Below, piece by piece: positions 6,231 through 60,967 of a stretch of DNA of 64,000 bases (its first letter is position 1; the number at the start of each line of letters is the position of its first letter). Both the position numbers and the translations under genes were made by a program. The notes beneath the pieces were generated by a model. That model saw only the letters and a program-made list of their open reading frames with translations. It was not told the origin of the DNA and did not search any database. Source of the DNA: a virus; the IMG/VR virus record IMGVR_UViG_3300044535_000472, positions 58,615 to 122,614 of that record; one strand, given 5' to 3'.

Positions 6231-8825
6231 TTAAATTAATCCTCCAAACATATAAGGTAATGCACCTGTACCTGCTGCTTGTGCGTATTGTGCAAATGCA
6301 GCTGCAGCATTTGGATCACCCATATTATACTGCTGTAACATTTTATTAAACATCTCAACCTCAGGATTTCCAGGATCTTGAATGTTCATACCCTTGCCGC
6401 CAAAAATAAGTTGTGCAGCTTTATCTGCAGAAACACCTTTTTTCATAAGATCATTTATCCTTTGTAATTGTGCTTCATACTCATCAAAAGATTTTTGACC
6501 TGTAAGATCTTTACCTTTATTAAAATATACTAAACCTGATGGCTCATCTATAAGAAACTTGTTACCAGACATTGCCTCAAGATTAGCTGATGTAGCTGCG
6601 TTAACGTCCATAGCATTTTTCAATGCGGTTGTTTGAGCAATAAACTCATTTTGAGTTTGCTTATCATTTTGAATCTTTTGCGTCATTTCATCATAGTAAC
6701 GCTTAGAATTTTCTAAGTTATATGCGTTAGTCTTAAACGCTAAATCTGCACGGGCTTTCTCAGCATTGTTATAAATCTCATTGTTAGCATTAAAGTATTT
6801 ACCTAATGTATTAGCAATTTGATTTGATGCTTGAGCTTGTGTTGAAGCAGCAGCGGCGGCATATCCTTGTGGACTTCCGTAAACACCAGCGGCACGTAGC
6901 GCACCTTGTGCTGTACCCTGTGTTTCAGCAACCTCACGACTTGGATCTAAGTATGCTTGGTTAAAGCTTACTGGAGCCATAGGGAAAGATGCAGGCATAA
7001 CATTAGGTTGGTTTGCACCAATAGCTAAGTTAGCTACCATGTTATTTACATCTGGTCCCCAGTACTGTAGATCAGGTGTTGCTTGTGTATATGTAGGAGA
7101 TTTCGGGGTTTCAACTGTGCTTTCAACATCTTTAACATCTTCAAAGCCTACTCCTTCTTCTTTAAGACCTTTTACAAATAAACCTTGTCCTGCAGTAGTA
7201 TTACCAAAGATATCATCAACAGGAGATATTGCACGTCCTGCAGCATCTTGTTGGTCACTCATACCTCTTGGTACTAATGTAAAGTTCTCAAGTGTTTTTG
7301 CATATTCAGGATCATCAGCCGCAGCTTGAATACCCTTATAGGCAGCTTGGAACATTGCAATTTGATCATCATTAAAAATCTCATCATCTTTAAAACCAAT
7401 ATCTTTAGCTGTTTTTCTATAAACATTGTTTTTATTTCCACCACCTTTATCCCAAGTTTTGTTTTTAGTAATAGGATCAATCTTACCTTCTACTTCCGCT
7501 TTAGTAATTGCAAAGACTTGTTTTTGAGCTTTTAAAAAGTTATCCAAAACTTCTTCTGCACTTTTAGATTTTAAAGCAGCTTTTCTAGATGAGCTAAGAC
7601 CTGAGGCATCAACTTGACGCTTGTACTCTTCATACATGCGATCAACAATACCTTTATTTGCTGGATCTTTTAATACACCTTCAACATAAGAATAGTCATC
7701 AATGTATCCACCAAGACGTGGATCTGTAACATTTGATTTTGGCAATTGTTTAGATACAGTAGTTTTAGTTACTCTTTGGTAGCCACCATCAGCTTTTACT
7801 ACATATACCTCTTGCTTGTTTTTTGCTTTACCAAATTCTTCACGTACACGTTTTTGAAAATCTGTATCAGACTCATTTTCATTACGTGTAATAACCGTAG
7901 CATTCTCGCTAGGTTTAAATTTAGTTACAGTAGTAGTACGTCTTGAAGCTGGCTGTTGATTTCCAAATGGTGTATTAATTATGTTACCATAACCATCTAC
8001 AACATAGGTCATACCTGTAACTCTATCTGTGATAACACGTGGCTGATTTTGTGCAGTGCGCAATTGATTAATACGGCGTTGCATTCTACGCATTTTACCA
8101 CTTTGAGCTTTTGGTAATCCACCATAACGAGCCTGTGGCATTTCACCTTCAGCCATTTCATTATCTTGCATAGCTTCCATTTGCTCATTATCAGAACCAG
8201 CTTGCATAGGCATAAGAGCAGAAGGATCTGCACCTACACGCATTAAGTATGGTAATGATAAAGCTGGAATATCTTCAAAACCTTTGCTAGCTTCTTGAGC
8301 TAATGCAATTTGACCTAGTTTATCAATAGAGTTTTTAATATTTAATTCAGCAGTACTAACATCCATTTTAGTAGCATTAGGATCTGCCATTACTTGTCTA
8401 GCATCATTAATAACACTACCATATTTCTTAGCTGCGTCAGCATAAGAAATTTTAGAAGTTTTAGACTTACCCTTTTTAGCAGGGTATCCAAAGTATTCTG
8501 CTAAGTCCTTTGGCATCTTTAGAAATTTACTAAAGATAAAAGAATCCTCGGTGGCACGCATAGGTACTCCACCATCAGCATGGGAAGGACCATTGATGTT
8601 AAAGTGTGCGGGTAAACCTCCTACATTAGGATCAAGAATGGTTTCGCCACCCTCTGCTTCAATATTAGGATTTTCATAATCTGGTTGTACAGATTTACGT
8701 GCTTCCGTTAAAGGCGCCCCTGCAGTATTGTGCACAGACCAAGGTGCAATTTGCATAGGAATATTGGGGTAGTGTGTACCACCCCTTTTCATTTGCGGAA
8801 GTTTCTTAATAGTAACTTTTCTCAT
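6231..8825 (-). CDS. Putative internal virion (cargo) protein, 864 aa
   Basis: MRKVTIKKLPQMKRGG header, an EAEGGE...GPSHADGGVP segment of the kind seen in crAss-like structural proteins, internal RYGG-LPKAQ, C-terminal YMFGG. Confidence 0.6.
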   Translation of the reverse strand: MRKVTIKKLPQMKRGGTHYPNIPMQIAPWSVHNTAGAPLTEARKSVQPDYENPNIEAEGGETILDPNVGGLPAHFNINGPSHADGGVPMRATEDSFIFSKFLKMPKDLAEYFGYPAKKGKSKTSKISYADAAKKYGSVINDARQVMADPNATKMDVSTAELNIKNSIDKLGQIALAQEASKGFEDIPALSLPYLMRVGADPSALMPMQAGSDNEQMEAMQDNEMAEGEMPQARYGGLPKAQSGKMRRMQRRINQLRTAQNQPRVITDRVTGMTYVVDGYGNIINTPFGNQQPASRRTTTVTKFKPSENATVITRNENESDTDFQKRVREEFGKAKNKQEVYVVKADGGYQRVTKTTVSKQLPKSNVTDPRLGGYIDDYSYVEGVLKDPANKGIVDRMYEEYKRQVDASGLSSSRKAALKSKSAEEVLDNFLKAQKQVFAITKAEVEGKIDPITKNKTWDKGGGNKNNVYRKTAKDIGFKDDEIFNDDQIAMFQAAYKGIQAAADDPEYAKTLENFTLVPRGMSDQQDAAGRAISPVDDIFGNTTAGQGLFVKGLKEEGVGFEDVKDVESTVETPKSPTYTQATPDLQYWGPDVNNMVANLAIGANQPNVMPASFPMAPVSFNQAYLDPSREVAETQGTAQGALRAAGVYGSPQGYAAAAASTQAQASNQIANTLGKYFNANNEIYNNAEKARADLAFKTNAYNLENSKRYYDEMTQKIQNDKQTQNEFIAQTTALKNAMDVNAATSANLEAMSGNKFLIDEPSGLVYFNKGKDLTGQKSFDEYEAQLQRINDLMKKGVSADKAAQLIFGGKGMNIQDPGNPEVEMFNKMLQQYNMGDPNAAAAFAQYAQAAGTGALPYMFGGLI

Positions 8826-11594: not shown

Positions 11595-13553
11595 TTAGGT
11601 TTTTACAAATACATACTTACCATTGGTATCTGTAAGAATCTGGAAACCTTTATCTTTACGTGAACCTCCTTTCTTAAAACCAGCAGGATTTGGATTATTT
11701 ATATCTATTTCCCATTGTGGCTCAGTTAAGTCAAAATTTCCCCATATTCTACCAGAACCTTTTATTTCTTGCGGAAAACTATAGCCTTGAATATTACGGT
11801 TTAACTCATCAATATGTCTAGGGTATCTTCTTAAAGATGGGGATAAGCTTTTATCATAATTTTCTAAAAAGGTTCCTATACCTTTCTCATAGATACTAGG
11901 ATAGTCTACACCAAATTTTCCTATTTTTCTAATACTTGTACGATCATACATATCTGTAAAAGCTGATTCAGGTATTCCTGAAAGATCTACAACACCAACT
12001 TCACCTGTTGCAGGGTCAAACATAAAGTTGTTTGGATTTACCCAGTCTACAGATATGTCATTATCTTGTAAAAATTTCAATCTTTTTGAAGTATTTGCTA
12101 TTGACTGTGGTGTTAGTTTACTTCTAAATGTAGATAAACCTCCAGGACTTTCTAAGAATCGCATTAGAGGTTGACCTGAAACTTTATTTAACACTTGAAC
12201 AGCAACACCTGGTGTACTTATTTTTGAAACTTGTGTTCTAAAATCAGGAAATACATGAGAAACCTTAGGTAATCCTAAATATGAATCTGCAGAAGATTGT
12301 CCTAATAGACCAAGTTTATCAAAAGTTTCTTGCGTTTCCCAAGGCATTAAGTTACCAACTTTTAAAACTTCAGTTTCACTACCTACAATTGGTAGCACTT
12401 TTCCAAAATAACCAGAAGCCGCATTTTGAAATGAGTTAACGTCAATAGGATAGCGAAGTTTATTCACTGCCTTTTGTAAATACTTATTTTGCAAATTAGC
12501 TATAACATCTATATCAAACGTATTTAGATGATTTCGTGCATTTTTAACTTTTTCTATATACGGTTGTAGATCAATAGTTTCTCCATCAAACTTAGCCATT
12601 CTCGCATTTTGCAACTGATACTCATGAAAATTAAAATCATCTAATGCATCTTTGTACTCAGGTGAGCTTTTAACTTGATAAACTTCATCTTGAAGCTGCT
12701 TACTCCAACGTCTTACATCCCACTCTTTAATGTTTTTAGGATTTGTAAACATACCATTACCATACACATAGTCTAAAAACTTTTGGGTTTTTTCTTTATC
12801 GTATAGTGAACTCTGTTTACTAGAAAGCTTTGGTTCAAAAAGTATATTCTTTACTTCTCCCGTTCTTGTAATAACACTTTTTCCAGCACTCTTTAATAAG
12901 GGTGAAGCAGCCCTTGCAACAGGAACTGCTGCGGCTAAATCTAAATAATTTCCTAGTGCTTCTCCACTATATCTTGGATCAAATAAACCTAATGTATTTG
13001 TTAAACCATATTCTAACGGATTATCAACAAATTTTTCTACTTGTCTACCACCAGCATTTATTACAAAAGCAGGTATACCAGCAGCCATATCTACCACTGA
13101 AGTCATTGGTGATCCTACACCATACCCTTCATAAGGATTATGCATTCCTAGTGATCCACTTGGAATATCGTAACCTCTGTTAACAGCAGCTATAGTTTCC
13201 ATAGGATGGCTTACAGCTGTCCAGGCACGTCTTGCAAATTTTTCAGCATCGCTTCTAGTATCTGCCGTAAGTACATCTTGACGTTTTAATGCTTCTGGTA
13301 AAGCATCATACGCTTCCTGCGCTTTAGCTTCTTCTATAATCTGTTTACCACTTTTATCTTTCCATGTGTCAGGAGCTTTAGGCATATTAGTAGGTCTAGT
13401 AGATTCTGCTACAACAGGTTGCGTTTTAACTTCCCTTATATCCCCTACAAGATTTTGTGTGGGTGCTACTTTCATTTCACGTCTAAGGAAATCTCTCCAG
13501 TCTGGAATATTAGTTTGTGCCTTAGGTAATGATTTTATTTTAACTTTTCTCAT
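11595..13553 (-). CDS. Modular cargo-like protein with C-terminal protein-kinase-like domain (652 aa)
   Basis: Gly-loop ASGYFGKV, beta3 lysine VLKV, hinge VQVLNKVSGQPL, catalytic loop DWVNPN (DxxxxN) and DFG-equivalent VVDLS, in canonical order. Confidence 0.75.
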   Translation of the reverse strand: MRKVKIKSLPKAQTNIPDWRDFLRREMKVAPTQNLVGDIREVKTQPVVAESTRPTNMPKAPDTWKDKSGKQIIEEAKAQEAYDALPEALKRQDVLTADTRSDAEKFARRAWTAVSHPMETIAAVNRGYDIPSGSLGMHNPYEGYGVGSPMTSVVDMAAGIPAFVINAGGRQVEKFVDNPLEYGLTNTLGLFDPRYSGEALGNYLDLAAAVPVARAASPLLKSAGKSVITRTGEVKNILFEPKLSSKQSSLYDKEKTQKFLDYVYGNGMFTNPKNIKEWDVRRWSKQLQDEVYQVKSSPEYKDALDDFNFHEYQLQNARMAKFDGETIDLQPYIEKVKNARNHLNTFDIDVIANLQNKYLQKAVNKLRYPIDVNSFQNAASGYFGKVLPIVGSETEVLKVGNLMPWETQETFDKLGLLGQSSADSYLGLPKVSHVFPDFRTQVSKISTPGVAVQVLNKVSGQPLMRFLESPGGLSTFRSKLTPQSIANTSKRLKFLQDNDISVDWVNPNNFMFDPATGEVGVVDLSGIPESAFTDMYDRTSIRKIGKFGVDYPSIYEKGIGTFLENYDKSLSPSLRRYPRHIDELNRNIQGYSFPQEIKGSGRIWGNFDLTEPQWEIDINNPNPAGFKKGGSRKDKGFQILTDTNGKYVFVKT

Positions 13554-13559
13554 TCTAAG

Positions 13560-16500
13560 TTATTTTAAATTGTCCAATACGCTTCTTGTATATTTATTTC
13601 TTTCACCCAATGGGACTAGCACCCCATCTTTTTTCACATTTCGTATATAGTTCTTAAGCATCTTTTCATAAGCTTGTTTTTTTACAGTAGCATCTTTTGT
13701 TGTAGAATACTGATTTGCTGCTCCAAAAAAGTTAGGATATTCTTCTATAGGAAGACCATTATAAACAAAGTCTAATGCAAGTACTTTTAAATCAGGATGT
13801 AACTTATCAAAAGAACCTTTTCCAAATTTTGTTTCATACTGCTCTAATGTGCGATCAAGATGTTCTTCTGCATCATTACGCATTAACGCAATAGCCTCAT
13901 CTTTAGTAAGCCCTTTAGAATATCTGTTAGTTTTAACATCATCATCTGTTAGCTTATGACCATAACCTATTGTATCATTACCACCTTCTTCAGATGCATA
14001 CTGATAATATCTTCCATCTTTTAAACCTTTATTAACACCATTTTCTTGTTGCATCAATCGTGTATAGTAATCTTCAGGTATTTTAAATCTCACAGGTTTT
14101 GGTTTATCAAAGGCATTCATCACTTGATTATATTGATCTAATAAAGTTGGTGTTGGTTGTGGGAGAATTCCCATCTTTTGCATTTGATCAAAAACATCTG
14201 GTGTTTCTGGTGCGGGCTTATAACCATATTGCTGCATCATATTAATAATGCCACCTCCATCTTGTTTTCTTTCTATATAGCGCATTCTTTGCAGCTCAGG
14301 ATCAAATACTAAGTTTTGATTTTTACCTCCCCAGTTACGGTCATTGCTCAACATAAAGTCCTTATACTCCATCCAACCGGTATCTCCAGGATGGGATTCT
14401 CCCGGTATATGAGACTTTAACCAAACACCTGTATCAGGATTAGTACTAAAGCCATGATACATATTATCATAGGGATCTGGCTGCCAGTGTGGATTCATTT
14501 CTAAAGCTTGCTCAAAATTCTCAGGTTTTCCTAAAGCATTCCACATGTTATAGTGATCATATTGTCTAGGGTTACCATATTGCCACTTGGAGTCAGGTCT
14601 TCTATTTTCAGGCGCTGTTTCACTGTAACATAAAAAATCTTCATAGTCATCCGGCAAGCCACCACCAGTTTGAGCTTGATCTAAATATAACTCGAAATCA
14701 CCTTCATCAAACATTTCATCATCTACAATAATATCTTGAAATGCTCTATTTCTATTTGCAAGTATTTCTTCTTCTGTAGATCCTCCAGCTTGTTTTACCT
14801 TTTTAAATCTTTTATCATTAGGATCAAATGGTGCAGCATCATTTGTATTCCAAATTCTACCATACCATGTATTGTAATATGCATCTGATGGAGTACCATC
14901 GGGTTTAAGATCTATGTTTTGATAATAGAAATCACGACCCTTATTTAATAACTGACGTCTATCATTTACTGAAAGTTTATTAATAGCGGGTGCATATTGT
15001 TGCCACAATTTATCTAGCTCTGCCAACTTTGCCGCTACGGCTTTTTTATCAGCCTTAGCTCCATAATAGTCAATATTAAAACTACCTCTATTAGGTAATC
15101 CAGATTGACCTATGCTTTTTAAATATTGATCTAATTGATATATTCTAGGATCTCTACCAGTATTATATATAAAATCAACAGCTTCAGTTTGCTCTGCTGG
15201 AGTAGTATAGTAAGGTTGTGCGATTGGTAAAACATTAGTCATCATCCAATTTATAGCATCATCCCTTTTAGGATTAGTACCTAGTAAAGGATTTCCATAA
15301 TCAGTTAAACCTGTACCATCACGTCTTCCTCTTGCATATTCGTAATCTGCAATTTTACCTATACCTGTTTTTATATCACCAATTAGTTGAGCCTTTGGTA
15401 ATGATTTTATTTTTATTTGTTTAAGACTTGGTATAGATATATCACCACCTTTTTGCTTTCTAGTATATCTAGCGCTACCCGTTCCCATATGAGCTCTAGA
15501 TGTATTTTGCCATATCTCAGGAGTAACTCTATCAGTCCTAATTACATCAAATATTTTTTCTCCTGGTTGACCTTTAAAAGCATAATGTGAAAATGGATCT
15601 AACTCTCCAAATGCGTTTTGTGCAAAACCACGATAAACTTTTGGATCTAAAAACATTTCTTTAAGAACTACTTTTAACGGAGCAAGCTCAGGCTTAATAT
15701 CATAGTAAGCTCTCATAAAATCATAGTAAGACATTTTAGCATAATCTAATAAGTTAGGGCTATCTTTAAACACAAGATCATCTTCTCCAGGTGTCCAACT
15801 CATAGAACGGCTTTTGTCATAATCAGCTGCCAGTACCCCTCTTCTGTTTTTGGGATTTGTTGCTTTTGCCAAAGCATCTTTCTTATTTCTAAATTTTCTT
15901 TGCATTGGCCACGCATCGGTCTGCGCTTTTCTATATACATCATCAAGACCTTGAGTTAACCTATGTTGTTTCATAGGATCTTTTGTAACATATACAAAAT
16001 CTCTAATAGATGTTGGTAATCTTTTTTGATAGTCATTTGCTACAATACCTGTTCCATATGGGGAACCCCTAAATCCATAGTTAATTGGATATTCATTTGC
16101 TGATATCCAATCTAGTCTATTTGATGATGAGAAATCTGTAGGACGTCTTAAAGTAACAGAATAGCCATCGCCATAAGTATAACCCTCGGCATTAGGTTTA
16201 GAGTTTGATACGTATAGTGCATGTTCCCCTTTCTTTAAACCATATCTACCATATCCAGTTTCTCCTGGTATGTGGGATGCCATATACTCTGCAGCAGCTT
16301 GAGGATTTGTTTCATAGTTAATCCCCTGCGCTTCTAACTCTTTAATTAATTTACTCCAAGCATTTTCTTCACCGAGCCATCTACCACTAAGAGTTTCTTT
16401 AACTTTAGGCCAATTGGTACTAACACCTCTTACAAAAGTGTTATGCCTATTTAACAAACCTCTAAAAGTCATGTCAGTAAGCATATCTGATTTTGCAACT

Positions 16501-17831
16501 CTTTGTATATCAGGTATATTATATCCATACTGTTTTGCCCAATGCTGTAAATTTTGAAGATCTTTAAATCTTCTTCCTGTGCTTCCAATTGCTCCAATAT
16601 TTTTTACCGCATTTAAATCTGAAGATAAATTTTTAGCTCCTAGAAAGTTTAACGCATTGAGACCTCCTTCAAATGCTACATCTCTCCAGTCTCCTTCTCC
16701 AGCATTATATCTAGATACAGCTTGTCTAAAGTCAGATTCTGGATTTAAAAAATTATAAGTACCTACAGCTTGAAATGCTGGATTAACGACATTACCCAGT
16801 GTAACACCAGTACCTAATAACTCCAAACCTAATGTACTAGCAATAGCTGGAGCAGCTGCATATAATCCTACTGCAGCATCTAAAGGTCCAACTGTTGTAT
16901 TTGTTGTACCAAGCATGTTTGCTTTCTGCTGAGAATCTTGCTTATGTTGTTGATAAGCAGAAAATTTTCTACTAAACTCGGTACTATTAATAGCTTTATC
17001 GGCCTGATCTAAAATGTATTTTTTATCTTTTAACTTAGAATTTAATTTCTTTTTTTCTTTTTCATTTTTTGAAAAAGATATATCAAAAGTCAGTTGACCT
17101 ATTTCGTCTTCTATTTTTTGTTTATTGTATGATGCATTTAAATAATCAGTTATGTCTGCATCACTTATTTCACTATTAGTAATATCTTCAGGACTCCATA
17201 AACTCATTCCTCCTATTTTTGGACCTGTACCAAAGCGACTTGTATATGCTGCTTTAGCATAACCAGTTTCTGGATTTACACTTTCTAAATCTTCTTGACT
17301 AGGTGTAGTAAGATGTTTTGCAAAACGTTCTTTTTTCTCCTGCTCTAAAACTTCTTTAGATGGTTGCTTATAATTAGCATCCATCCAGTTTGCAATCTCT
17401 TTACCTCTTTCTAAATTATTCTTATTCTGAGCTGCTGTATTATATGCCCAATTTGCATTTCTATATTCATCTACTGAGTTCCATCCTGCTACCTGTGCTC
17501 TTCTGTTAAGCTCCATATTCTCAGCAGGACTTAAATTAACATCATAGCTAGAATTAAATTGACCTGTAGTTTGGGCTTTTGGTAAAGTCTTTATTTTAAC
17601 TCTTTTAAGATTTGGCATAGAGGTATTACCACCATAAGCCATCATAGGTATTTCATATACGGCAGTACCAGGAAATGTATAGTTACCTCCAGGCTGCATC
17701 ATTTTAGTATTACCTAAATTATCAATACCCAATACAGGGTATGGTACACCCTTCATTGTTATATCACCACTTGGAATAATAGTATCCTCACCAGGATATT
17801 TCCATTGTCCATATTTACTTACTTTAGCCAT
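13560..17831 (-). CDS. Multidomain cargo-like protein: ART-like segment, degenerate lysozyme-like domain, C-terminal GH24-like lysozyme (1423 aa)
   Basis: C-terminal MQQENG...DTIGYGHKL...LTKDEAIALMRND...ALDFVYN matches phage lysozyme motifs. FVRGV...LYVSNSKPNAEGY resembles an ART core. Modules are separated by GG motifs. Confidence 0.7.
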   Translation of the reverse strand: MAKVSKYGQWKYPGEDTIIPSGDITMKGVPYPVLGIDNLGNTKMMQPGGNYTFPGTAVYEIPMMAYGGNTSMPNLKRVKIKTLPKAQTTGQFNSSYDVNLSPAENMELNRRAQVAGWNSVDEYRNANWAYNTAAQNKNNLERGKEIANWMDANYKQPSKEVLEQEKKERFAKHLTTPSQEDLESVNPETGYAKAAYTSRFGTGPKIGGMSLWSPEDITNSEISDADITDYLNASYNKQKIEDEIGQLTFDISFSKNEKEKKKLNSKLKDKKYILDQADKAINSTEFSRKFSAYQQHKQDSQQKANMLGTTNTTVGPLDAAVGLYAAAPAIASTLGLELLGTGVTLGNVVNPAFQAVGTYNFLNPESDFRQAVSRYNAGEGDWRDVAFEGGLNALNFLGAKNLSSDLNAVKNIGAIGSTGRRFKDLQNLQHWAKQYGYNIPDIQRVAKSDMLTDMTFRGLLNRHNTFVRGVSTNWPKVKETLSGRWLGEENAWSKLIKELEAQGINYETNPQAAAEYMASHIPGETGYGRYGLKKGEHALYVSNSKPNAEGYTYGDGYSVTLRRPTDFSSSNRLDWISANEYPINYGFRGSPYGTGIVANDYQKRLPTSIRDFVYVTKDPMKQHRLTQGLDDVYRKAQTDAWPMQRKFRNKKDALAKATNPKNRRGVLAADYDKSRSMSWTPGEDDLVFKDSPNLLDYAKMSYYDFMRAYYDIKPELAPLKVVLKEMFLDPKVYRGFAQNAFGELDPFSHYAFKGQPGEKIFDVIRTDRVTPEIWQNTSRAHMGTGSARYTRKQKGGDISIPSLKQIKIKSLPKAQLIGDIKTGIGKIADYEYARGRRDGTGLTDYGNPLLGTNPKRDDAINWMMTNVLPIAQPYYTTPAEQTEAVDFIYNTGRDPRIYQLDQYLKSIGQSGLPNRGSFNIDYYGAKADKKAVAAKLAELDKLWQQYAPAINKLSVNDRRQLLNKGRDFYYQNIDLKPDGTPSDAYYNTWYGRIWNTNDAAPFDPNDKRFKKVKQAGGSTEEEILANRNRAFQDIIVDDEMFDEGDFELYLDQAQTGGGLPDDYEDFLCYSETAPENRRPDSKWQYGNPRQYDHYNMWNALGKPENFEQALEMNPHWQPDPYDNMYHGFSTNPDTGVWLKSHIPGESHPGDTGWMEYKDFMLSNDRNWGGKNQNLVFDPELQRMRYIERKQDGGGIINMMQQYGYKPAPETPDVFDQMQKMGILPQPTPTLLDQYNQVMNAFDKPKPVRFKIPEDYYTRLMQQENGVNKGLKDGRYYQYASEEGGNDTIGYGHKLTDDDVKTNRYSKGLTKDEAIALMRNDAEEHLDRTLEQYETKFGKGSFDKLHPDLKVLALDFVYNGLPIEEYPNFFGAANQYSTTKDATVKKQAYEKMLKNYIRNVKKDGVLVPLGERNKYTRSVLDNLK

Positions 17832-20800
17832 TAGCGAGGAGATAAAGTTTGTTTCATGTTGTTAATCTTATAAAGCATCTTGGTGTTATTTTGACCAGGT
17901 GCATTTTCTCTAATAAGTTTTAATCTGTTTACATAGTGGCGAAACTTCTTACGTTGGAAAGCTGGCTTACTATAGTTAATATTATTAGGGTTTAACAAAG
18001 ATATATAACCGTTTGCTTGTGTATCCCACATTTGAGTTACAAATCCAGTGTATTCACCACGGTCTCTGGTTAAATCTACAAATTGATTAAAGCGATATTT
18101 ATTCTCTTCTTTAGAATACAATATGTCTACGTATGTTGGTGTATATGTAGGATACTGCATTGCGAGGACCGGGTTATTCTTTGGGTGTAAGTTTAATCGT
18201 AACTCACCAGATACCTGCTCAGAGTTATATACTATAGCTTTATTAAAGTTGTAATCAAGTACATGGAATCTGTCATAACCATCTTGGCTATAAACATAAG
18301 CCTCAAGTATGTACTCCATGCTCTTAATAGATGTAACAGTTTGTCCATTAGAAACTACTTCTTCTACTTCAAATGGATAATCTACCCCATAGAAGTTTGT
18401 ATAGCTTGAAGTACTTTCATTATGCTTCCAAATGTTAGGACCCTTAGTTGTAAGGATACTCATCTTAGATGGCATAATTAAATCAGGATGCCAGTCATGG
18501 AATGAGATAAACGCTTTAGCCTTAGGGTCATAACTTACCGTCCAAGATGCATCTTCAAAGTATAATGGATCACCTAGTGCTACTGTTATTGAAGTAACTT
18601 GACCATTGATAACCTTGTTAAAGATATCCTTCTTATCATAGACAAGTCCTGAAGGCGCATCAATTCTTAATTTAAAATCTCTTTTGGTAAAGTATACTAT
18701 TTGATTTTTATTATCAAATGATGCTTGGCAACCAATACCGGCTATAGGATTTCTTACTAATTCAAAGTCTGGAAAATCTTCTAAAAGCTTATATGGTAAA
18801 TATTTTGCAAACCACCATTTTAAACCAGCTGTAGAAATCTCTTCTAAAGATTGACCAATACCAAATATTTTACCTTGGCTTTGAGCAACATAGTATAATC
18901 CCAAGGGTGTATTAACAACACTTAATGGATCTTGCACTGATGCATACTGATAAGCAGCATCTGCATTACTAAAACTTTGCAATGGTTGTGAAAACAAACT
19001 ACCATCTCCAATATTAAGCTTTGTACCTAAATCTAGTTCAAGATTTTCTACAGTACGTGTCATTACTGGTGAATCCTTTTCAGTAAAAATTATCACACCG
19101 CTTTGGTCATATGGCTTAACAGATATAACTTTAGACCTAAAGTCTTTATAGTTAAATGCTAAAAAGACTTGCCAGTAATCTCTAATAGCTTCTAAACTTT
19201 GTGGTAAAGAATATATAAGACGATTAGGATAATAGGTAAAGCATTTCTCAGCTACATATGGATTGTAACTAATAGGCTGAACATTACCCCAGCTAATTAA
19301 ATCATGATACGTCTTAGAGATACCAAGAGACATATCATACTTAAAGAAATTACCAGCTTTGATAATACTTGGTTCAAATAGTGCTTCAGTATCCGCATAT
19401 CTGTATGGATCATAGAATCTTTGATCATCTTGATTACCCCAATCACGATAACTTATATTAAGTTCTGTTTCTACAAAGAAATCTCTAACCCCAGATTGAA
19501 ATAAATAGAAGAATGCATTCTTTACACCAAATCTAAAGCTAACATTAAAGTTGGTACCACCACCACCTAATGAACCAGAAGGTGAATAGTTTCTTCTATC
19601 TAAATGATGATAGTTAGATGGAATATCCCAAGTATTTGAGCTTACACTACCTAGTGATAATAAATCACCTACCATACTACCAAGAGCTCCCATTGCATCA
19701 TACTCACTTAAATTAGCCCAATATCTTGGATATGATATCATGTAGTGTAATCCATAATCAAACTGAGTACCATCTGGTTGACCGTAAAGCCAATCTCTAA
19801 AATAGAAGAAAGTATTTTTTTCAGTATATCTTCCTATATACACATCACCACCATACACAATAGAACCTGGTACTTTTTTACCCTTATCATTTTGTGTTAG
19901 TGTTAAAAACGTAGTATTGCTACATGAACCAAAATTACCATCAATTGGTTTTACAATAGTTCTGCAGCCTGAAGGAACTTGTAGTATACTATCTATTTGA
20001 CCATAAAGGTTAGGTCTTCTTATTTTAAATCCTGCATAGTATGATGAAGCTGTAGTATCAAAATCTTGTTTAACAATATCTAAAAAATCATATTCATTTG
20101 CAGTTAGTCCTGCTGTAGTATCATTATCAATATCAAATTGAACACCAATTGTGGTAAGAGAATTATCTACTATGCTTGGATCAGCAATATTATTACTTGC
20201 TTCAAACATTACAGCTCTTCCTCTATATAAGTTATTTACTCGATAACTTACTTGTGTACTATCTGATGCTGGAAAAGTCTGTAGCAAATTATCTAAGTAA
20301 TAAGATCGCTCAACTTTACGACGATGGTTACCTATTTGTACATTACCAATAGTGTTATTTGTTAAATCACCATGTGATAAATATCTATAGGCGTACTGTC
20401 TATATTTTGTACTAGCTTTTATAAGTTCTACGAAATTAGAAAGACCCATTCCCCAGTAACTCATAAATGAAACTATACCATAGGATGAAGCAATGCCTGG
20501 GTCTAGCATTTGCTGACCAGATAATTCAAGATCTAAATTTTCACTAAATCCAATTTTTACTTTAGAATCTTTATAAAATTGGTTATCAGAAAGTGTATGA
20601 TAAAAACCAGTTACATCATAGTTTTGACCAAATCCTAAAATCGCATTCCACGCTTGGTTATTACCTCCTAAACTAAATAGGTTATTACTATCATTAATAC
20701 CACTTTCAACAGTATTATCAGATCCTGGACCTTGTATTTGACCGTCTACATATAAAGGAACTTCAAACTTAGCACTATCTGGAATAGGTTCACTATCCCA

Positions 20801-23176
20801 ATATTTATTAGGTGTGCTACCCTCTAAGCCACTTATTGCTCCACCACTTATTGGACTTTGAGTTCCAGCACCCCCTACAACCCACGTACCTCCACCACCA
20901 CTTAATGCATTACCATCAATAGATTCATTATATTGACCTAACCATAGTTCTTTAGGACCTTGTTGCGATCTTGTTTTGCGACCTCTAGCTTTTATCATAG
21001 CTTCTGCCATACCTATAACAACTGCTACTGAAAAAGCTAAATCTGTAATAAGCTTGTGACGAGGATGTTCAGGTACTTCACTAAATGCACCATTAACATT
21101 ATTTGTATATCCTCTTTGTCCATATAAAACAACTTCTTGAGGTGTAAGATATGGCGATATTACTTGTGTATCAGGTGAGTGAAATGTAAATATATCTCTA
21201 AATACTTTACTAGGTGGTGGATAAAGTTGTCCATTATCGCTAGGTCCACCTGGTATGTCTTTAGTAGATAAAGATGGGTCAGGTTGTAAAGAATTATAAG
21301 GATAGTTTTGATAAAGAATTTCATCAGCACCATCTTTATCTTCCTTATAAGATCTTACATTGTTTATAATACCTTTTGCAATAACTGTTTTATTACCTTG
21401 ACGAGAAGATCTTAAAATCTCATAGCCTACAATACCAGGTATAACATTACCTTGATTATCTAATGGTGGTAAGATATTATCAAACTCTACTCCTAGTACA
21501 CGTATTCTAGCAGGTGAATTGTCAGCATTACTTACGATATGATTAGATGCGTCATTATATGATACAGAACCATTGCTATTATAAAATATAATATCAGCTG
21601 GCATTTTATGATGACGTAGTGCTTTACCACATAAATCATAATCACTATTAAGATTAGTGTTTGGGTATGGGTAGGAGGCTGGTGCTGTCCAGGGGTGATC
21701 CGCGTTATTAGCATCCCAAACAACAGGTTGATTATTTGGATAAATCTCAGTTGATTGCCAGTAACCCATTCTCCCCTTAGCTGTTATAATACCACCATCA
21801 TCTTGAGTTATAGATAATCCAGGATCGGTAATAAACGCTGTATTGTATACTTGCCAAACTGCAGTTTCATTATTTATAACATCATTAGTTATAGAAGGTT
21901 GTGCTGTTTCCCAGCCATACGCTGGACGTCCTGGTATATGATATGACGATGATGTATCTCCTGTATTATAAACCCAGCGAATAAAAAACGCATAGATTTC
22001 ATCACGCATATAACCATTAACATTACCACCTTTAAAATAGTAATCTGCAGGATATTCTGTAACTACCCATTTAGCAGATATCTGATTTGCTAAAGGTTGA
22101 TAGTTAAAACTAAATCTAGACTTAGGTGATGTTCTAATTAAATAATCATTTATTGAAAAAATACCCTCAGAAGTTTCTGTTATAGCATTTCTTACTACTA
22201 ATGATGGTAAAGGTACATCTTGTAATGTATCCGGTATTTCAGGAATTTCAACAGTTCTTGAGTTTGTGCTATATAATCCAATGCGCTTAGCAACAGTTTG
22301 TTGATTAACAAACTTTACTATTACAAGCTCAAACTGATCATATAAATCAGTTTCCATATCATTGATTACTAGCTGTAAACCTTCGCTAATATTATCATGA
22401 TTAAACAAAGATTGAATATTGCTAGGTGGATAATAGTCGGTTACACGTTCTCCATTTAAAGCATATGCTACAAATGCAAAGTATGAACCATTAAGTAAAG
22501 TACCTCCTGATAAACTTTTAGTAAGCTCAATACATGGTGTCTTAACAATCTTAGCTATTCTAATTTTTTCACAATCTAGCTGTAATGGATATATTGGTTT
22601 ACAATCTTCACATGGTCCTGAATTTACATCTTGTGTAATATAAGGAACACCAGGCCAAGGTTGTTCAAATGGTGCTACTCTAATATCTCCAATGTTTAAA
22701 GTTCTATCTGGATTATTACCATCTACAAAATATACTTGAAAAGAGCAATCATAGTTTTGCTTTGCCTCACCAATTACAATATTATATTTTGTAAAATTTA
22801 AACAAGGATCATTAACAATAGTATGATATGAACAAGTATTTGCCATGAATAATCCAACTTCTGAATTACCATTTTCTCCTGACGTAATAACCCACTTATC
22901 ATCATAAACATGTATAGCACCATTTATTTGATATGGTGCTGTTGTTTGAGCTCCGGGAGGAACACATAAGGTATTAGAAGGTTCATTACCTAAAACACCT
23001 ACATTACCATCTGTTGAATTATTTACAGCATTACGCGCATGTGACCAGCACGACTCTGGAAAATAAACATCATCGTAATCTTTTACTAAACCTTTTGAAA
23101 AAGTGTCACTTTGTGTAGTAATCATTGTGGTAATACCACTTCCTTTGCCACTTTTACCAGATACTTTCTTAGCCAT
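17831..23176 (-). CDS. Tail stabilisation protein (P22 gp10-like, crAss-type), 1781 aa
   Basis: Size, beta-rich composition, C-terminal WTVSYDP..KAFISFHDWHP segment, and position after ring and IHF-like genes as in crAss-like phages. Confidence 0.65.
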   Translation of the reverse strand: MAKKVSGKSGKGSGITTMITTQSDTFSKGLVKDYDDVYFPESCWSHARNAVNNSTDGNVGVLGNEPSNTLCVPPGAQTTAPYQINGAIHVYDDKWVITSGENGNSEVGLFMANTCSYHTIVNDPCLNFTKYNIVIGEAKQNYDCSFQVYFVDGNNPDRTLNIGDIRVAPFEQPWPGVPYITQDVNSGPCEDCKPIYPLQLDCEKIRIAKIVKTPCIELTKSLSGGTLLNGSYFAFVAYALNGERVTDYYPPSNIQSLFNHDNISEGLQLVINDMETDLYDQFELVIVKFVNQQTVAKRIGLYSTNSRTVEIPEIPDTLQDVPLPSLVVRNAITETSEGIFSINDYLIRTSPKSRFSFNYQPLANQISAKWVVTEYPADYYFKGGNVNGYMRDEIYAFFIRWVYNTGDTSSSYHIPGRPAYGWETAQPSITNDVINNETAVWQVYNTAFITDPGLSITQDDGGIITAKGRMGYWQSTEIYPNNQPVVWDANNADHPWTAPASYPYPNTNLNSDYDLCGKALRHHKMPADIIFYNSNGSVSYNDASNHIVSNADNSPARIRVLGVEFDNILPPLDNQGNVIPGIVGYEILRSSRQGNKTVIAKGIINNVRSYKEDKDGADEILYQNYPYNSLQPDPSLSTKDIPGGPSDNGQLYPPPSKVFRDIFTFHSPDTQVISPYLTPQEVVLYGQRGYTNNVNGAFSEVPEHPRHKLITDLAFSVAVVIGMAEAMIKARGRKTRSQQGPKELWLGQYNESIDGNALSGGGGTWVVGGAGTQSPISGGAISGLEGSTPNKYWDSEPIPDSAKFEVPLYVDGQIQGPGSDNTVESGINDSNNLFSLGGNNQAWNAILGFGQNYDVTGFYHTLSDNQFYKDSKVKIGFSENLDLELSGQQMLDPGIASSYGIVSFMSYWGMGLSNFVELIKASTKYRQYAYRYLSHGDLTNNTIGNVQIGNHRRKVERSYYLDNLLQTFPASDSTQVSYRVNNLYRGRAVMFEASNNIADPSIVDNSLTTIGVQFDIDNDTTAGLTANEYDFLDIVKQDFDTTASSYYAGFKIRRPNLYGQIDSILQVPSGCRTIVKPIDGNFGSCSNTTFLTLTQNDKGKKVPGSIVYGGDVYIGRYTEKNTFFYFRDWLYGQPDGTQFDYGLHYMISYPRYWANLSEYDAMGALGSMVGDLLSLGSVSSNTWDIPSNYHHLDRRNYSPSGSLGGGGTNFNVSFRFGVKNAFFYLFQSGVRDFFVETELNISYRDWGNQDDQRFYDPYRYADTEALFEPSIIKAGNFFKYDMSLGISKTYHDLISWGNVQPISYNPYVAEKCFTYYPNRLIYSLPQSLEAIRDYWQVFLAFNYKDFRSKVISVKPYDQSGVIIFTEKDSPVMTRTVENLELDLGTKLNIGDGSLFSQPLQSFSNADAAYQYASVQDPLSVVNTPLGLYYVAQSQGKIFGIGQSLEEISTAGLKWWFAKYLPYKLLEDFPDFELVRNPIAGIGCQASFDNKNQIVYFTKRDFKLRIDAPSGLVYDKKDIFNKVINGQVTSITVALGDPLYFEDASWTVSYDPKAKAFISFHDWHPDLIMPSKMSILTTKGPNIWKHNESTSSYTNFYGVDYPFEVEEVVSNGQTVTSIKSMEYILEAYVYSQDGYDRFHVLDYNFNKAIVYNSEQVSGELRLNLHPKNNPVLAMQYPTYTPTYVDILYSKEENKYRFNQFVDLTRDRGEYTGFVTQMWDTQANGYISLLNPNNINYSKPAFQRKKFRHYVNRLKLIRENAPGQNNTKMLYKINNMKQTLSPR

Positions 23177-23178: not shown

Positions 23179-24090
23179 TTAGACAGCATTATTTGTTCTA
23201 TAATTTGGTGCAAATGGAAAATAAGACTTGAACATATCATAATATTTACCATACATGGCTTTACGGTTCATAGCCCATAGTTTTTCCATTTCGGAGAAGT
23301 TAGGAGTATTAACAATAGTAAGTGCATTGTTTCTAGCAGCTCTATACTCTTGTGATACAAGTTGATATTGTGCTGCTACATTTTCTCCATCCATTACTAA
23401 GTTTTCAAGTATACGTTTTTTAATAGCATACTCATAATACTCATTAAGCATTGGATGATCTGGTATTAATAGGTCACCATTTTCATCCGTAAATGTTCCT
23501 TGATAGTTGATATAAACTGAAGCAGTTTCTAATGTTGTATACAACCAACCATCTTTAATCCAAGCTTCATCAACATGTGAGTGAAAAAGATTTGGCCAAT
23601 TGCAATCTACATATTTAGAATTTCTAAATCTTAAAGGAAAAAAGTTTTTGTACGCTCTTCTTTCAGTATTTACTACTTGAATAATTTGATACTCTGAAGT
23701 TTTTTCACATTTGCTAAAACATACCGGTTGTTGTGGTAATGAATCATTAGTGCAATATGCTTGTTCTACCCAAGGTCTCCATGTTGGCGTAACATCTTGA
23801 ACGTTAGTACCTTGCGCAGGTACAACTAAATCATACCCTTGTGATACAGCAAGAGCATAGTTCATCACATAGAAATCTTCTGGTAAACGTACTCTACCTT
23901 TTTCAACCTCAAGAATAGTTTCTTTAGTCATGTTAATTCTAAGACCTAAATCATAGTTTACACGCATTGCAACTTTGATAAGTTGCGCAGGGTCAATTCT
24001 GTTTTCTAGTGTAAGAGTTCTAAGATCTATCTTAACATCTTCAAGAAGAGACTCAAAGGTTCTATATTTAAGGGTGTAGTTGTAATTCAT
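23179..24090 (-). CDS. Tail tubular/ring protein (crAss-like)
   Basis: 303 aa, helical N-terminus, LEVEKGRVRLPEDF, LLIPDHPMLNEYYEYAI; synteny. Confidence 0.55.
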   Translation of the reverse strand: MNYNYTLKYRTFESLLEDVKIDLRTLTLENRIDPAQLIKVAMRVNYDLGLRINMTKETILEVEKGRVRLPEDFYVMNYALAVSQGYDLVVPAQGTNVQDVTPTWRPWVEQAYCTNDSLPQQPVCFSKCEKTSEYQIIQVVNTERRAYKNFFPLRFRNSKYVDCNWPNLFHSHVDEAWIKDGWLYTTLETASVYINYQGTFTDENGDLLIPDHPMLNEYYEYAIKKRILENLVMDGENVAAQYQLVSQEYRAARNNALTIVNTPNFSEMEKLWAMNRKAMYGKYYDMFKSYFPFAPNYRTNNAV

Positions 24091-24764
24091 TATGGTCTAA
24101 GTATACTTTGTTTATCATCAATTGCGGTATCTGAGGGAATAGCCATGCTAAACTTAAGATCATTATACACCTGGGCTTCAATTTGGCTAAATAAATAATC
24201 CGGTACGATAAGAGGCTGATCTTGTCTTTTAATACAATCTGGTTGAGTATCACATGTATATGGAGAAAGATCCTGCTCAAAGATACCCTCTACAGATACT
24301 GCCTCCCAATCCACATTAGGAAAATACAAGTACCCATTCAAATACCAATAATACTTTTGTTTATTGTATTTGTAGCCTGATGTTTTAGCCATAGAGTTAT
24401 ATAAGGCTGGCTCTGTTTTATATACTTGAGTAGAATCATCTACTGAAGCTACAGTTCTAAATAATGGTCCATATGAGCTATCCATTACTCCGGGAATTTT
24501 ATCTCTAGTGCGCTTTACCATGATGTTTGATTTAACATCGCAGCATGCCTCAACTTTATCTACCTCAATAAGGTCAACGCATGGAAGCCTCCTAAAGAAA
24601 CTATTAAACCTTAATATCTCATTAAGGCTATCTTGCTTCTTAATAAAGAACTTTGCATGTTTCATTATTAAGCTAAATATGTATCTATCTGTAAGAAAGG
24701 CGTCCTCAGTTGAGCCCTTTACTATATTTCTAACTCTAGATACTGCTTCTCCTATTGTAGTCAT
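24090..24764 (-). CDS. Tail ring/adaptor protein (crAss-like)
   Basis: 224 aa; N-terminus and YWYLNGYLYFPN segment resemble crAss ring proteins; synteny. Confidence 0.55.
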   Translation of the reverse strand: MTTIGEAVSRVRNIVKGSTEDAFLTDRYIFSLIMKHAKFFIKKQDSLNEILRFNSFFRRLPCVDLIEVDKVEACCDVKSNIMVKRTRDKIPGVMDSSYGPLFRTVASVDDSTQVYKTEPALYNSMAKTSGYKYNKQKYYWYLNGYLYFPNVDWEAVSVEGIFEQDLSPYTCDTQPDCIKRQDQPLIVPDYLFSQIEAQVYNDLKFSMAIPSDTAIDDKQSILRP

Positions 24765-32911: not shown

Positions 32912-33415
32912 TTATTTTAAGAAAAGTAATTTGTACTTAGCTGAGTTTATAGCATCTTTAACTAAGTCTAGGTTATTAACTATCTCTGAATAAGGCATCA
33001 TGCCTTGAAGTTTATTGATAGAATTATACATATCTCTAAGATAGGCCACCGCATCTGCTACAGTATCTAATGTGCGAATAGGCATATCTTTATAAGTTAA
33101 AAGCTTTTCAGTTGCTCCCTGATAACCTTCTACAAGAGTATCAGCATAACCATGTAGACCATCATAAAAATCACCAAGAGCTTTATGAGCAGCATAAGAA
33201 CCATCTCCCTTTATCTTTAGATGTAATCTATGAAAACTTACAGCAGCATTCATCATTTCTGTAGAGCAGGCTGCAGTCATGTTATCTAATGAGCTTCCTC
33301 CAACACCTGCATCAGAAGTAGGCATTGGTTTAGCAGCTTGTTCAACACTAGGTCTACTAAGCTTTTTAATAGGCTCAGGATCTCTCTTTAATAAATTTCT
33401 TGGTTGTTCAGCCAT
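32912..33415 (-). CDS. Ferritin/Dps-like four-helix protein (DUF5856-like)
   Basis: HRLHL..GDGSYAAHKALGDFYDGL..YADTLVEGYQG, and C-terminal SAKYKLLFLK. Confidence 0.7.
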   Translation of the reverse strand: MAEQPRNLLKRDPEPIKKLSRPSVEQAAKPMPTSDAGVGGSSLDNMTAACSTEMMNAAVSFHRLHLKIKGDGSYAAHKALGDFYDGLHGYADTLVEGYQGATEKLLTYKDMPIRTLDTVADAVAYLRDMYNSINKLQGMMPYSEIVNNLDLVKDAINSAKYKLLFLK

Positions 33416-57671: not shown

Positions 57672-58673
57672 ATGAATAAGATTACCGCCACTGGCAAACT
57701 CGCTAAACAGTATCTTAAGAAGTATCCTAAGCTTCCTATCCAAACAATTGCTAAAATTATGCTCGCCGAAAATGAACTGCACTTCAATAGTGTAGATCAC
57801 GCGCGCTCACTACTGAAGCGGCATTCAGGCTTAGGTGGTAAGGAAACAAGGAAAAATGTAGATCCAGAATTACAAAGACCTATAACATATAATTATGCAC
57901 CATTTAATGACATACCAAAATCATATAAGTCTGGACCTAATGACTTTGTACTACCAAATGATGCTAATCATATTCTTGTTCTTTCTGATATACACTTTCC
58001 TTATCACGATGAAGAAGCTCTGGGTGCGGCTATTCAATATGGCATACAACAGCAGGTTAATACAATACTTCTTAACGGTGATATTCTAGATTTTTACCAG
58101 CTGTCACGCTTTGATAAGGACCCGAGCAAACCTAAGATGCAAGTAGAACTTGAACAAGGTAGATGGTTTATGAAAGCACTACGCACAGCATTTCCAAAAG
58201 CTAGAATCTATTATAAGATTGGTAACCACGAAGACAGACTTGAGAAGTGGCTAAGAATCAAAGCACCAGAGTGGATTGGGATGGATGAGTTTGAGTTAAA
58301 GATGTTATTACGCTTTGGGGAAAACCAAATAGAACTCATTGATTCAGATGCTACTATTAAAGTAGGTAACTTAAACATTATACATGGTCACGAATATTTA
58401 GGAGGTGGTACCGTAAATCCAGCAAGAAATTTGTATCTTAAAGCTAAGGCCAGTACTATTTGCGGACACTTCCATAGAAAATCAGAGTTTGTTACACGTG
58501 ATATTAACAACAACATTCAAGGTGCTTGGACAACAGGATGTTTATGTGAGTTATATCCCGAGTACATGAAAGGGCATAGCGATTGGGTACACGGCTTTGC
58601 AGTTATTAAGATAGAGAAGGATGGTTCCTTTTCAGTAGATAACAAAATGATTATTGACGGTAATGTAGTATAA
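57672..58673 (+). CDS. Calcineurin-like metallophosphoesterase with N-terminal helical/HTH-like extension
   Basis: Motifs SDIH, NGDILD, GNHE, HGHE, GHFH in order. Confidence 0.9.
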   Translation: MNKITATGKLAKQYLKKYPKLPIQTIAKIMLAENELHFNSVDHARSLLKRHSGLGGKETRKNVDPELQRPITYNYAPFNDIPKSYKSGPNDFVLPNDANHILVLSDIHFPYHDEEALGAAIQYGIQQQVNTILLNGDILDFYQLSRFDKDPSKPKMQVELEQGRWFMKALRTAFPKARIYYKIGNHEDRLEKWLRIKAPEWIGMDEFELKMLLRFGENQIELIDSDATIKVGNLNIIHGHEYLGGGTVNPARNLYLKAKASTICGHFHRKSEFVTRDINNNIQGAWTTGCLCELYPEYMKGHSDWVHGFAVIKIEKDGSFSVDNKMIIDGNVV

Positions 58674-58675
58674 CA

Positions 58676-58897
58676 ATGGCAACAACTATTAAAGCTGGAA
58701 TTTATGTAGACCCGCTTAGCGAGGATGAGTCTACCCCTGAGATCTATATTGATCACAGCATGATCCAGATATATAGTCAGGAGGATATCCTTGTTGTACA
58801 ACTAAGCTATGAAGAACTTCGCGGTGTCTTAGCCATCATGGCGGCAGAACAAGAAAAAACTCACCTGCGCATTCAGGCTATCGGTAGGAATAACTAG
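58676..58897 (+). CDS. Hypothetical protein, 73 aa
   Basis: 2 nt after the phosphoesterase stop. Confidence 0.6.
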   Translation: MATTIKAGIYVDPLSEDESTPEIYIDHSMIQIYSQEDILVVQLSYEELRGVLAIMAAEQEKTHLRIQAIGRNN

Positions 58898-58978
58898 AAG
58901 GCGGGTGTTCCCTCATCCATATTCATATACCATGTAAAGAGTATCCACCTAAGATCATCTGATAACTTAGGTAAGTGG

Positions 58979-59158
58979 TTATATATTTCGTTCAGCTCTT
59001 TCAAGGGCGCGGTTGTATAACTGGTACAAAGATACATTTATTATATCTACTTCAGCTACCCTATGCTCACCAACTAGGTGTATCATAAGCAAGGTAAACT
59101 TATAGTAGTCTAGCGGGTGTTTCCCAACTGGGAGCATTTTAACTATTTCCGGCATCAT
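58979..59158 (-). CDS. Possible small protein, 59 aa (MMPEIVKMLPVGKHPLDYY...)
   Basis: Manual translation. TATATTTG (Bacteroidota -7-type TAnnTTTG) lies on the minus strand at 59166-59173. Confidence 0.35.
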   Translation of the reverse strand: MMPEIVKMLPVGKHPLDYYKFTLLMIHLVGEHRVAEVDIINVSLYQLYNRALERAERNI

Positions 59159-60014
59159 CTCGTAACAAATATATATGTAAAATTGTTACCACACTAAAGT
59201 ATGGAATTGGATACCGTAAACAGATATATTGACCTTTGTGTCTTAAAAGTCATACTATAGTGTGATTTTATACCCTATAAGGGATGTTATCCTATGTGGG
59301 TAATATGACCCGTACCCTGGAGGGTATATATTAGATAGATGTTATAAACCACATCTGTCGCAATTATAGTAAACTTTTGCGACAGCTATTGTGGAAAATA
59401 ATCACCAGAATCAGGCTTTTAGTGGAAAATAATCCCCAACTCCTACTCGCTTACTGGAAAATATTTACCAAACTCTGTAACAAAACATGGACAAACTCGG
59501 AAGTTTCCCGAATTATCTGCATGAATTTTTCCAAATTTTGCATGCAAACAGGGGACCCCTTGGTATAGTACAATATGCAATTACATATAGAACCCTGGAT
59601 CTTGACCATTATAATATGCAGGAGCATATAGTTAGGAATGTCCAGTTTATTGCACAAAAAACTTGACATTACCGGTTCTCCTACATATACCCTCGTAGGG
59701 AATAAGACAATCAACCTACCCCCGGTAGTAAGGTTAGGTGGGGACACCCCCAGGGGGGATGGAGGTAGGGGAAATTTAATGTGGTAGATGATGTGAGGGG
59801 TATACTACAAATCAACCCCCGGCTTTAAACTTTTTAGGGGGTACCCCCCATGAAATTTGAAACATTTCATTTAAAAGTTGAAATCCAAAGAAAACATTTT
59901 ATCTATTGAAAAATGTTTATACGTCATATAACTATGACATGGTTGATTTGAGTTGCACAACAAAGACTTGAGTTGTTGTGTTGTGCCACCCGTCCCCGAC
60001 CACCACCCCTAGAT

Positions 60015-60030
60015 ATGTTGCAAGCAACAT
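60015..60030 (+). promoter_or_regulatory. Palindrome ATGTTGC-AA-GCAACAT upstream of the first early-type gene
   Basis: Perfect 7-bp inverted repeat with a TTGC/GCAA core shared with downstream elements. Confidence 0.45.
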
Positions 60031-60065
60031 CATTGATACAACTTATTATTCATAATCTTAAGATA

Positions 60066-60269: not shown

Positions 60270-60282
60270 GCGATTTCTTTTT
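60258..60282 (+). terminator. Intrinsic terminator overlapping the stop codon
   Basis: GAAATCGC-TTAG-GCGATTTC followed by TTTTT. Confidence 0.8.
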
Positions 60283-60325
60283 GCTTTGCAATTAATAATA
60301 CAACTTATCTTTCATAATCATAATT

Positions 60326-60526: not shown

Positions 60527-60588
60527 GCTGCGCAATAGGCAATACACCATATACTAATAAAATCAGTTTCACTTAATTTAAATTTATC

Positions 60589-60960: not shown

Positions 60961-60967
60961 GGCTCAT

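Follow-up and report, generated by a model that had tools for sequence, protein, structure and literature searches.

Can a phage carry a protein kinase in its particle and deliver it to the host before any of its own genes are expressed? The question is raised by a 652-amino-acid (aa) open reading frame (ORF) at 11595..13553 (−) of a 64,000-nucleotide stretch of viral DNA (below, the window), the second half of the IMG/VR contig IMGVR_UViG_3300044535_000472. The contig, 122,614 bp long, is judged complete, and the ORF is present in one copy in this 122.6-kb virus record. The phage kinases known so far, T7 gp0.7 among them, are synthesised once the DNA has entered the cell; a particle-borne kinase, if true, would act at time zero, ahead of the defences that sense phage DNA or transcription. 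In the models described below, the C-terminal part of the protein looks like a catalytically competent minimal protein kinase of about 200 aa and of the NleH/OspG type, and we consider an injected effector kinase, carried as the payload of a modular crassvirus cargo protein, to be the best reading of the locus, with a probability of roughly 0.6.

Predicted Fold

We modeled the C-terminal 313 aa with AlphaFold2 from a family alignment (A2, described below) and obtained a mean predicted local distance difference test score (pLDDT) of 67, with values of 80–96 across model residues 40–190. The modeled elements follow the order beta1–3, alphaC, beta4–5, hinge, alphaD/E, beta6, catalytic loop, beta7–8, DFG-like Asp, and one alphaF-like helix. 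When compared with the PDB using Foldseek, a check that the first-pass annotation of this DNA had proposed, the model gave at least 500 matches and all 500 of those listed were protein kinases, with NleH2 (4o96) first and NleH chains at ranks 1, 4, and 8. VIA-align, which is independent of Foldseek, listed 50 rows, including WNK3 (Z 10.2, 192 aligned residues), NleH1 (Z 9.2, root-mean-square deviation 4.6, 159 of 160 residues aligned), and OspG (Z 8.8, 159 of 169 residues aligned). The matches in BFVD were viral kinases, and a second model, of a near-identical full-length cluster representative and built from a different alignment with four kinase-bearing rows, again retrieved kinases (Z 9.0). 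The models support a protein kinase fold with complete bilobal order for residues about 366–565, encoded at 11859..12458 (−). The first-pass annotation had placed a kinase at 11850–12430; the domain is indeed there, but it starts slightly upstream of that range. The fold proposed in that annotation has thus held up in two models from different alignments, in the fold searches, and in a profile match to NleH1.

Conserved Residues and Sequence Matches

An exhaustive phmmer search with the same 313 aa as the query (P0011; E ≤ 1e-3) among 1.84 billion representatives returned a small family of 16 proteins (clusters at 50% identity). Alignment A2 contains these 16 sequences and has a mean column identity of 14%; the conservation counts that we give refer to the sequences covering each column. 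Six kinase motifs had been read from the letters of the window, and translation places all of them in a single frame of the ORF, with the coordinates confirmed. On the minus strand, these are the Gly-rich loop ASGYFGKV (12396..12419; G381 kept in 15/15 and G384 in 14/15 sequences), the beta3 lysine K398 of VLKV (12360..12362; 15/15), the candidate alphaC glutamate E406 of WETQE (12336..12338; 13/14), the hinge VLNKVSGQPL (12165..12194), the catalytic loop SVDWVNPNN (12027..12053; D503 14/14, N506 12/14, N509 14/14), and the DFG equivalent VVDLS (11979..11993; D523 15/15). Two further conserved positions are Q453 (12/15) and G460 (15/15). In more distant family members, the Gly loop reads G-x-G-x-F-G-x-V and is fully canonical, and across the family the catalytic loop has the consensus (V/I)-x-(V/I)-D-(W/F/Y)-x-N-P-x-N and the DFG equivalent D-(L/I)-(N/S/A). 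The ATP-binding and catalytic set, consisting of the Gly loop, the beta3 Lys, the alphaC Glu, the catalytic Asp and Asn, and the metal-binding Asp, is complete, the assignment of E406 to alphaC being tentative. As the catalytic residues are near-invariant at 14% mean column identity, the motifs are not a product of chance.

At the level of profiles, A2 matched NleH1 at E = 0.0017, the sole significant profile match in the PDB. The match spans the segment from the hinge to the DFG-like Asp and places a gap of one residue in NleH within the catalytic loop. The NCBIfam model for NleH gave weak matches to 4 of the 16 family members (best E = 8e-4) and none to the window protein itself, and OspG_kinase matched one member at E = 0.068; all matches to the NleH/OspG models (PF22303, NF041316) were below the curated cut-offs. 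Pfam Pkinase matched two family members at E = 0.004–0.006, the best score being 16.9 bits vs. a cut-off of 31.7 and coming from relatives, not from the window protein. To the latter, Pfam, PHROGs, and NCBIfam assign no family. A search of the PDB with its single sequence gave no kinase match; a match to recA from that search was discarded, its score being an artefact of adding up six stretches worth about 2 bits apiece. In the ESM Atlas, the named clusters lying closest were OspG, YrbL, T7-kinase, and Kinase-PolyVal, with the T7-kinase cluster scoring 0.94, and we take these as a lead only.

Genomic Setting

Judged by its protein matches, the window is a deeply divergent crassvirus. It encodes Crass_capsid, CrAss_Ring_1, and CrAss_Ring_2 proteins as well as portal and TerL PHROGs, and TerL is about 25% identical to its matches, which come from crAss-like phages only. 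From TerL leftward to the end of the window, every gene is encoded on the minus strand. In the direction of transcription, the tail ring proteins Ring_2 (24090–24764) and Ring_1 (23179–24090) are followed by a 1781-aa gene in the muzzle position (17831..23176; phrog_37948, virion structural protein), a 1423-aa partner ORF with a C-terminal lysozyme-like domain (13560..17831), the kinase ORF, and ORFs of 891, 864, and 1494 aa. The kinase gene therefore sits in the cargo slot, after the ring proteins and the muzzle and before the RNA-polymerase-type giants. In four related contigs (L001, L003, L005, and the contig of protein P0024) the gene bearing the kinase comes immediately after the muzzle gene; the last of these contigs has crAss_MUZ ahead of the kinase-bearing gene and Glucosaminidase and crAss_CARG1 behind it. 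The equivalent position in crAss001 is occupied by the cargo genes gp45 and gp46, whose products were detected in virions by mass spectrometry (PMC10172136). The late, cargo-like setting described in the first-pass annotation is thus supported by the capsid and ring genes and by the gene order of the relatives. No minus-strand terminator was found flanking the kinase gene, and sigma-70 promoter-like sites occurred at chance level only.

Modules and Fusions

The kinase is one part of a protein built from modules, several of which recur without it. The protein starts with the leader MRKVKIKSLPKAQ (13515..13553 (−)), a junction motif that also marks three further starts or joints of modules within the window. 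It is followed by a conserved N-terminal domain (DVLTAD..RAWT..GMHNPYEGYG..; residues 85–232, 12858..13301 (−)), which shows 54–62% identity across relatives and is modeled as long helices at low AlphaFold confidence. Within it, residues 146–170 form a Gly/Ala-rich, moderately hydrophobic stretch; a transmembrane helix was considered here and rejected, the maximum Kyte–Doolittle mean of 1.31 over 19 residues being too low. We regard this domain as a candidate module for delivery or anchoring. A helical bundle (residues 250–365, 12459..12806 (−)) precedes the kinase N-lobe and is modeled confidently (pLDDT about 85–95), its structural matches being generic helical hairpins only. The C-terminal tail GFQILTDTNGKYVFVKT (11598..11648 (−)) is predicted to form a beta-hairpin; its consensus GFQ(I/V)LTD(A/T)NGKY(V/I)FV(K/N)T is kept on relatives with or without the kinase (P0004, P0006, P0012–P0014). 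The proposed cargo protein would thus be laid out as a basic leader, the conserved N-terminal domain, the helical bundle, the kinase, and the conserved C-terminal hairpin.

The payload in this layout is exchanged among relatives. The N-terminal domain recurs, at the identities given above, on proteins with unrelated C-terminal halves, one of them bearing a glucosaminidase. In an 82-kb IMG/VR contig, it lies in the interior of a 2926-aa ORF (L004 730–9510; 62% identity over query residues 1–263) in which we found no kinase and no Pfam-detectable domains. The junction motif, GG-x(3-8)-[LV]K[RQK]VKI[KN]xLPK[AN][QW], marks starts or internal joints of three adjacent cargo ORFs: on the minus strand, its sites are at 17577–17603 and at about residue 810 of the ORF 13560–17831, both internal to the 1423-aa ORF, at 13515–13553, and at 8793–8819. 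In relatives, it is found N-terminally, internally, or at the extreme C terminus (..VKRVKINxLPKNWKTK), and as a marker of module borders it can also be written GG...(V/I)K(R/Q/K)VKI(K/N)xLPK(A/N)(Q/W). The exact string VKIKSLPKAQ is present in 3 IMG/VR contigs only, 84–112 kb in length. The motif may be a site of processing or serve as an address for packaging. As a separate observation, the start of crAss001 gp45, MAKKKIKRRGKMPPN (L009 1988–2032), resembles the MRKVKIKSLPKAQTN leader in the pattern M-x-K-x-K-I-K-x-x-x-K, which is too short to score.

Fusions link the kinase to other cargo domains. In the window, the 1423-aa ORF and the kinase ORF share a reading frame and are separated by the gap 13554–13562, which reads TAA-CTT-AGA, i.e., a TAA stop and two codons. 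A single 1651-aa protein of a related contig (P0012; L005 8001–12956) corresponds to the two ORFs combined, and in P0013 the lysozyme-bearing and kinase parts also form one gene. The shared frame, together with these fusions, suggests a recent split or tightly coupled translation. Joining of the two window ORFs by stop-codon recoding or read-through was considered and set aside: with TAA as the stop and no tRNA genes anywhere in the window, we treat it as real. In a third relative, a 2377-aa crassvirus polyvalent protein (P0023; L003 10001–17134), SET, YkuD, and ART-PolyVal domains are combined with two kinase copies, of which the family hidden Markov model (HMM) finds one in full at about residues 1913–2116 and the other in part at about residues 2185–2285.

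Two observations concern other parts of the window. The head/tail module contains a 167-aa protein (32912–33415 (−)) matching phrog_858, "starvation-inducible transcriptional regulator" (Dps-like), at E = 1e-17, which is unusual among structural genes. At 57672–64000, the genes turn to the plus strand, G+C rises to 0.38–0.41, and the GC skew is positive in two of the last four 2-kb bins; the segment is probably the border of a replication or early module.

Occurrence

The gene sequence is present in lake and freshwater metagenome runs of 17 studies, two of them being possibly the source of the window DNA, and no RNA sequencing run was listed among the runs containing it. Given its presence across 17 freshwater studies, we take the virus to be a recurrent natural virus and not an assembly oddity. 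Among 50,697 deposited phage genomes, tblastn with the whole protein and with the kinase part gave no match even at E ≤ 1. Pattern searches of IMG/VR retrieved no kinase and a single locus for the N-terminal domain, and pattern scans gave no matches in GTDB genomes (two scans) or in metagenomes (one scan); pattern-based searching performed poorly here, and two of the alignments were too divergent for pattern building. A word-indexed profile search added no members to the family.

Alternative Explanations

Under the injected-kinase reading, the gene would be made late, alongside the virion proteins, and its product packed into the capsid or the tail cargo space. The next step would be its extrusion, before or together with the DNA, into a Bacteroidota cell, as described for the crAss001 cargo proteins. 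Once refolded in that cell, it would phosphorylate Ser/Thr (or Tyr) residues of host proteins while no phage gene is yet expressed, with takeover or defence proteins as plausible targets. The analysis itself shows the fold in models, the conservation of the catalytic residues, where the gene sits, its fusions, and the swapping of payloads; activity, packaging, injection, and targets are our inference.

Several observations weigh against this reading. The catalytic loop departs from that of canonical kinases. The histidine of HRD is replaced (S-V-D), as the first-pass annotation had noted for the window protein, and A2 shows its absence to be common to the whole family. The loop is one residue longer than the canonical one, and the invariant Asn lies at +6 from the Asp (D-x5-N), not at +5; the DxxxxN motif of the first-pass annotation was therefore right about the conserved catalytic Asp but not about the Asn, as the Asn at +5 from D503 in the window protein is there by happenstance. 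E406 lies two residues ahead of the modeled alphaC helix and thus just outside it. The alignment behind the first model contains 16 sequences only, and about a third of the 313 modeled residues have a pLDDT below 50; moreover, a kinase-like fold by itself leaves a protein as the substrate unestablished. On the side of delivery, the window ORF is not covalently joined to the lysozyme-bearing ORF, the part that must enter with the particle. In comparisons with crAss001 gp45, BLASTP gave E ≥ 2.3 for the kinase protein and nothing significant for the next ORF (891 aa), and crAss_CARG1 (PF25725) had no match in the kinase protein at E ≤ 1. Finally, the virus is uncultured and is known here from its genes alone.

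The alternative that survives best, although we find it unlikely, is an active kinase that is not packaged but works late in the infected cell, where it would phosphorylate assembly proteins or host factors or block superinfection, the late operon providing only the timing. Such a role would suit an ORF that stands alone, separated by a TAA from the lysozyme-bearing protein, and Benler et al. argued likewise for a HipA-like kinase among the structural genes of other Bacteroidota phages (PMC8008677). It sits poorly, however, with relatives that place the kinase in one polypeptide with a lysozyme or with ART-PolyVal, SET, and YkuD, with the sharing of the N-terminal domain, leader, and C-terminal tail by proteins carrying other payloads, and with the fixed position between the muzzle and cargo genes in four contigs.

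A second alternative, which we hold to be quite improbable, is a small-molecule kinase of the Kdo, aminoglycoside, choline, or lanthipeptide type, acting on a lipid, sugar, or metabolite. NCBIfam gave weak matches to Kdo kinase (E = 0.029, two members) and LanKC (E = 0.037, two members), Rio2 appeared in VIA-align at Z 8.2, and the reduced C-lobe has no recognisable peptide-binding platform. Yet the strongest matches in structure and in sequence are to protein kinases and NleH/OspG, the 50 VIA-align rows listed include no aminoglycoside or choline kinase, and the His of the HxDxxxxN motif typical of aminoglycoside- and choline-type families is absent.

The reduction of the C-lobe also bears on whether the domain is active at all. 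Only about 40–55 domain residues follow the DFG-like Asp, leaving no room for an activation segment, an APE motif, or alphaG–I. In comparison with a canonical eukaryotic-type kinase (PF00069), the family thus lacks the HRD His, the D-x4-N spacing, an activation segment with APE, and alphaG–alphaI, and it stays below the Pfam cut-off; NleH and OspG, whose layout is reduced in the same way, are nevertheless active kinases (PMC9950578). A pseudokinase or purely structural ejection-protein domain, serving as a scaffold or binding module without phosphotransfer, would fit the atypical catalytic loop (no His, one-residue insertion), the missing activation segment, and the many pseudokinases among the VIA-align matches (BIR2, PAN3, the JAK2 JH2 domain), but we give it very little credence given those active counterparts and the retention of the Gly loop, beta3 Lys, catalytic Asp and Asn, and metal-binding Asp in 14–15 of 15 sequences at 14% identity, a pattern expected of an active enzyme.

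Discussion

Among phages with large compartments for protein cargo, crassviruses are the best characterised. If the injected-kinase reading is true, the window protein would be, as far as we found, the first virion-delivered bacteriophage protein kinase. The family is unannotated by Pfam and PHROGs. It would connect the cargo of phages with the minimal kinases injected by bacteria into eukaryotic cells, and the conserved flanking modules could help in learning how the particle receives its crassvirus cargo. In a broader and more tentative form, for which we judge the odds to be somewhat short of even, freshwater crassviruses may use addressed, swappable cargo, specified by the leader or junction peptide, the N-terminal domain, and the C-terminal hairpin, with an NleH/OspG-like kinase as one payload that is injected with the DNA and hits takeover or defence proteins before phage expression.

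The kinase gene occupies the slot of crAss001 gp45 (C1, crAss_CARG1) and gp46, which lies downstream of the ring and muzzle genes and precedes the giant genes of the RNA-polymerase type (Bayfield et al. 2023, PMC10172136). Like gp45, the window protein has a basic N-terminal leader (MAKKKIKRRGK in gp45, MRKVKIKSLPK in the window protein) and a low-complexity, partly hydrophobic N-terminal part. The two systems differ in that gp45 and gp46 were seen in virions whereas the window protein is known from its gene alone. The passages of PMC10172136 considered here describe only channel-forming and RNA-polymerase-related roles for crAss001 cargo, and they ascribe neither kinase activity nor any other enzyme function to gp45 and gp46.

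T7 gp0.7 (T7K; PF27024) is likewise a phage enzyme with a kinase fold; its DFG-like motif is non-canonical, it acts on host proteins, and it disarms many defence systems by mass phosphorylation (PMC13645617). It is, however, an early product made after DNA entry, has a DNA-binding C-terminal domain, and belongs to another sequence family, whereas the window gene is part of a late virion operon.

The strategy of injecting a kinase is not new as an idea, having been predicted for polyvalent proteins in 2017. Kinase-PolyVal (PF18762) comprises C-lobe-reduced Ser/Thr/Tyr-type kinases that are parts of large multidomain proteins in Bacteroidetes (pro)phages, for which injection along with the DNA was predicted (Iyer, Burroughs, Anand, de Souza, and Aravind 2017, PMC5512222); that study makes no mention of crassviruses. 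Its published signature consists of a lost C-terminal subdomain, a Gln in the last N-lobe strand, a His and an insert before the catalytic Asp, and a Glu before strand 2. Matching positions by the published description only, we see the reduced C-lobe and the last-strand Gln (Q453) in the phage family, whereas the described conserved His and Glu are not seen. The families are alike in their occurrence in multidomain proteins, represented among crassviruses by P0023 with ART-PolyVal and P0012 with lysozyme and kinase. By sequence matching, the phage family escapes the Pfam model: PF18762 matched nothing across the virus record (E ≤ 1), none of the 16 family members (E ≤ 0.1), and none of the 8 members scanned at E ≤ 10. 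As the model misses the family and part of the published signature is not seen at the described places, we call the phage family a variant and not a member of Kinase-PolyVal, a relation judged from HMM non-matches and the published description only.

The closest solved structures are those of the type III effector kinases NleH1 and NleH2 of Escherichia coli and OspG of Shigella (4lrj, 4lrk, 4o96, 4q5h; PF22303, NF041316). The phage family differs from them in identity (13–17%), in its D-x5-N spacing and NPxN signature, and in its flanking modules. It shares with them the minimal layout and a catalytic loop of the form V/F-x-D that lacks the histidine of HRD; the segment from the hinge to the DFG-like Asp aligns motif for motif. 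The likeness would extend to the mode of action, as both would be pre-made effectors that pass through a narrow conduit into a target cell, the delivery of the phage kinase being predicted: NleH and OspG reach a eukaryotic target via the type III secretion system, whereas the phage kinase is proposed to reach a bacterial one via the phage tail.

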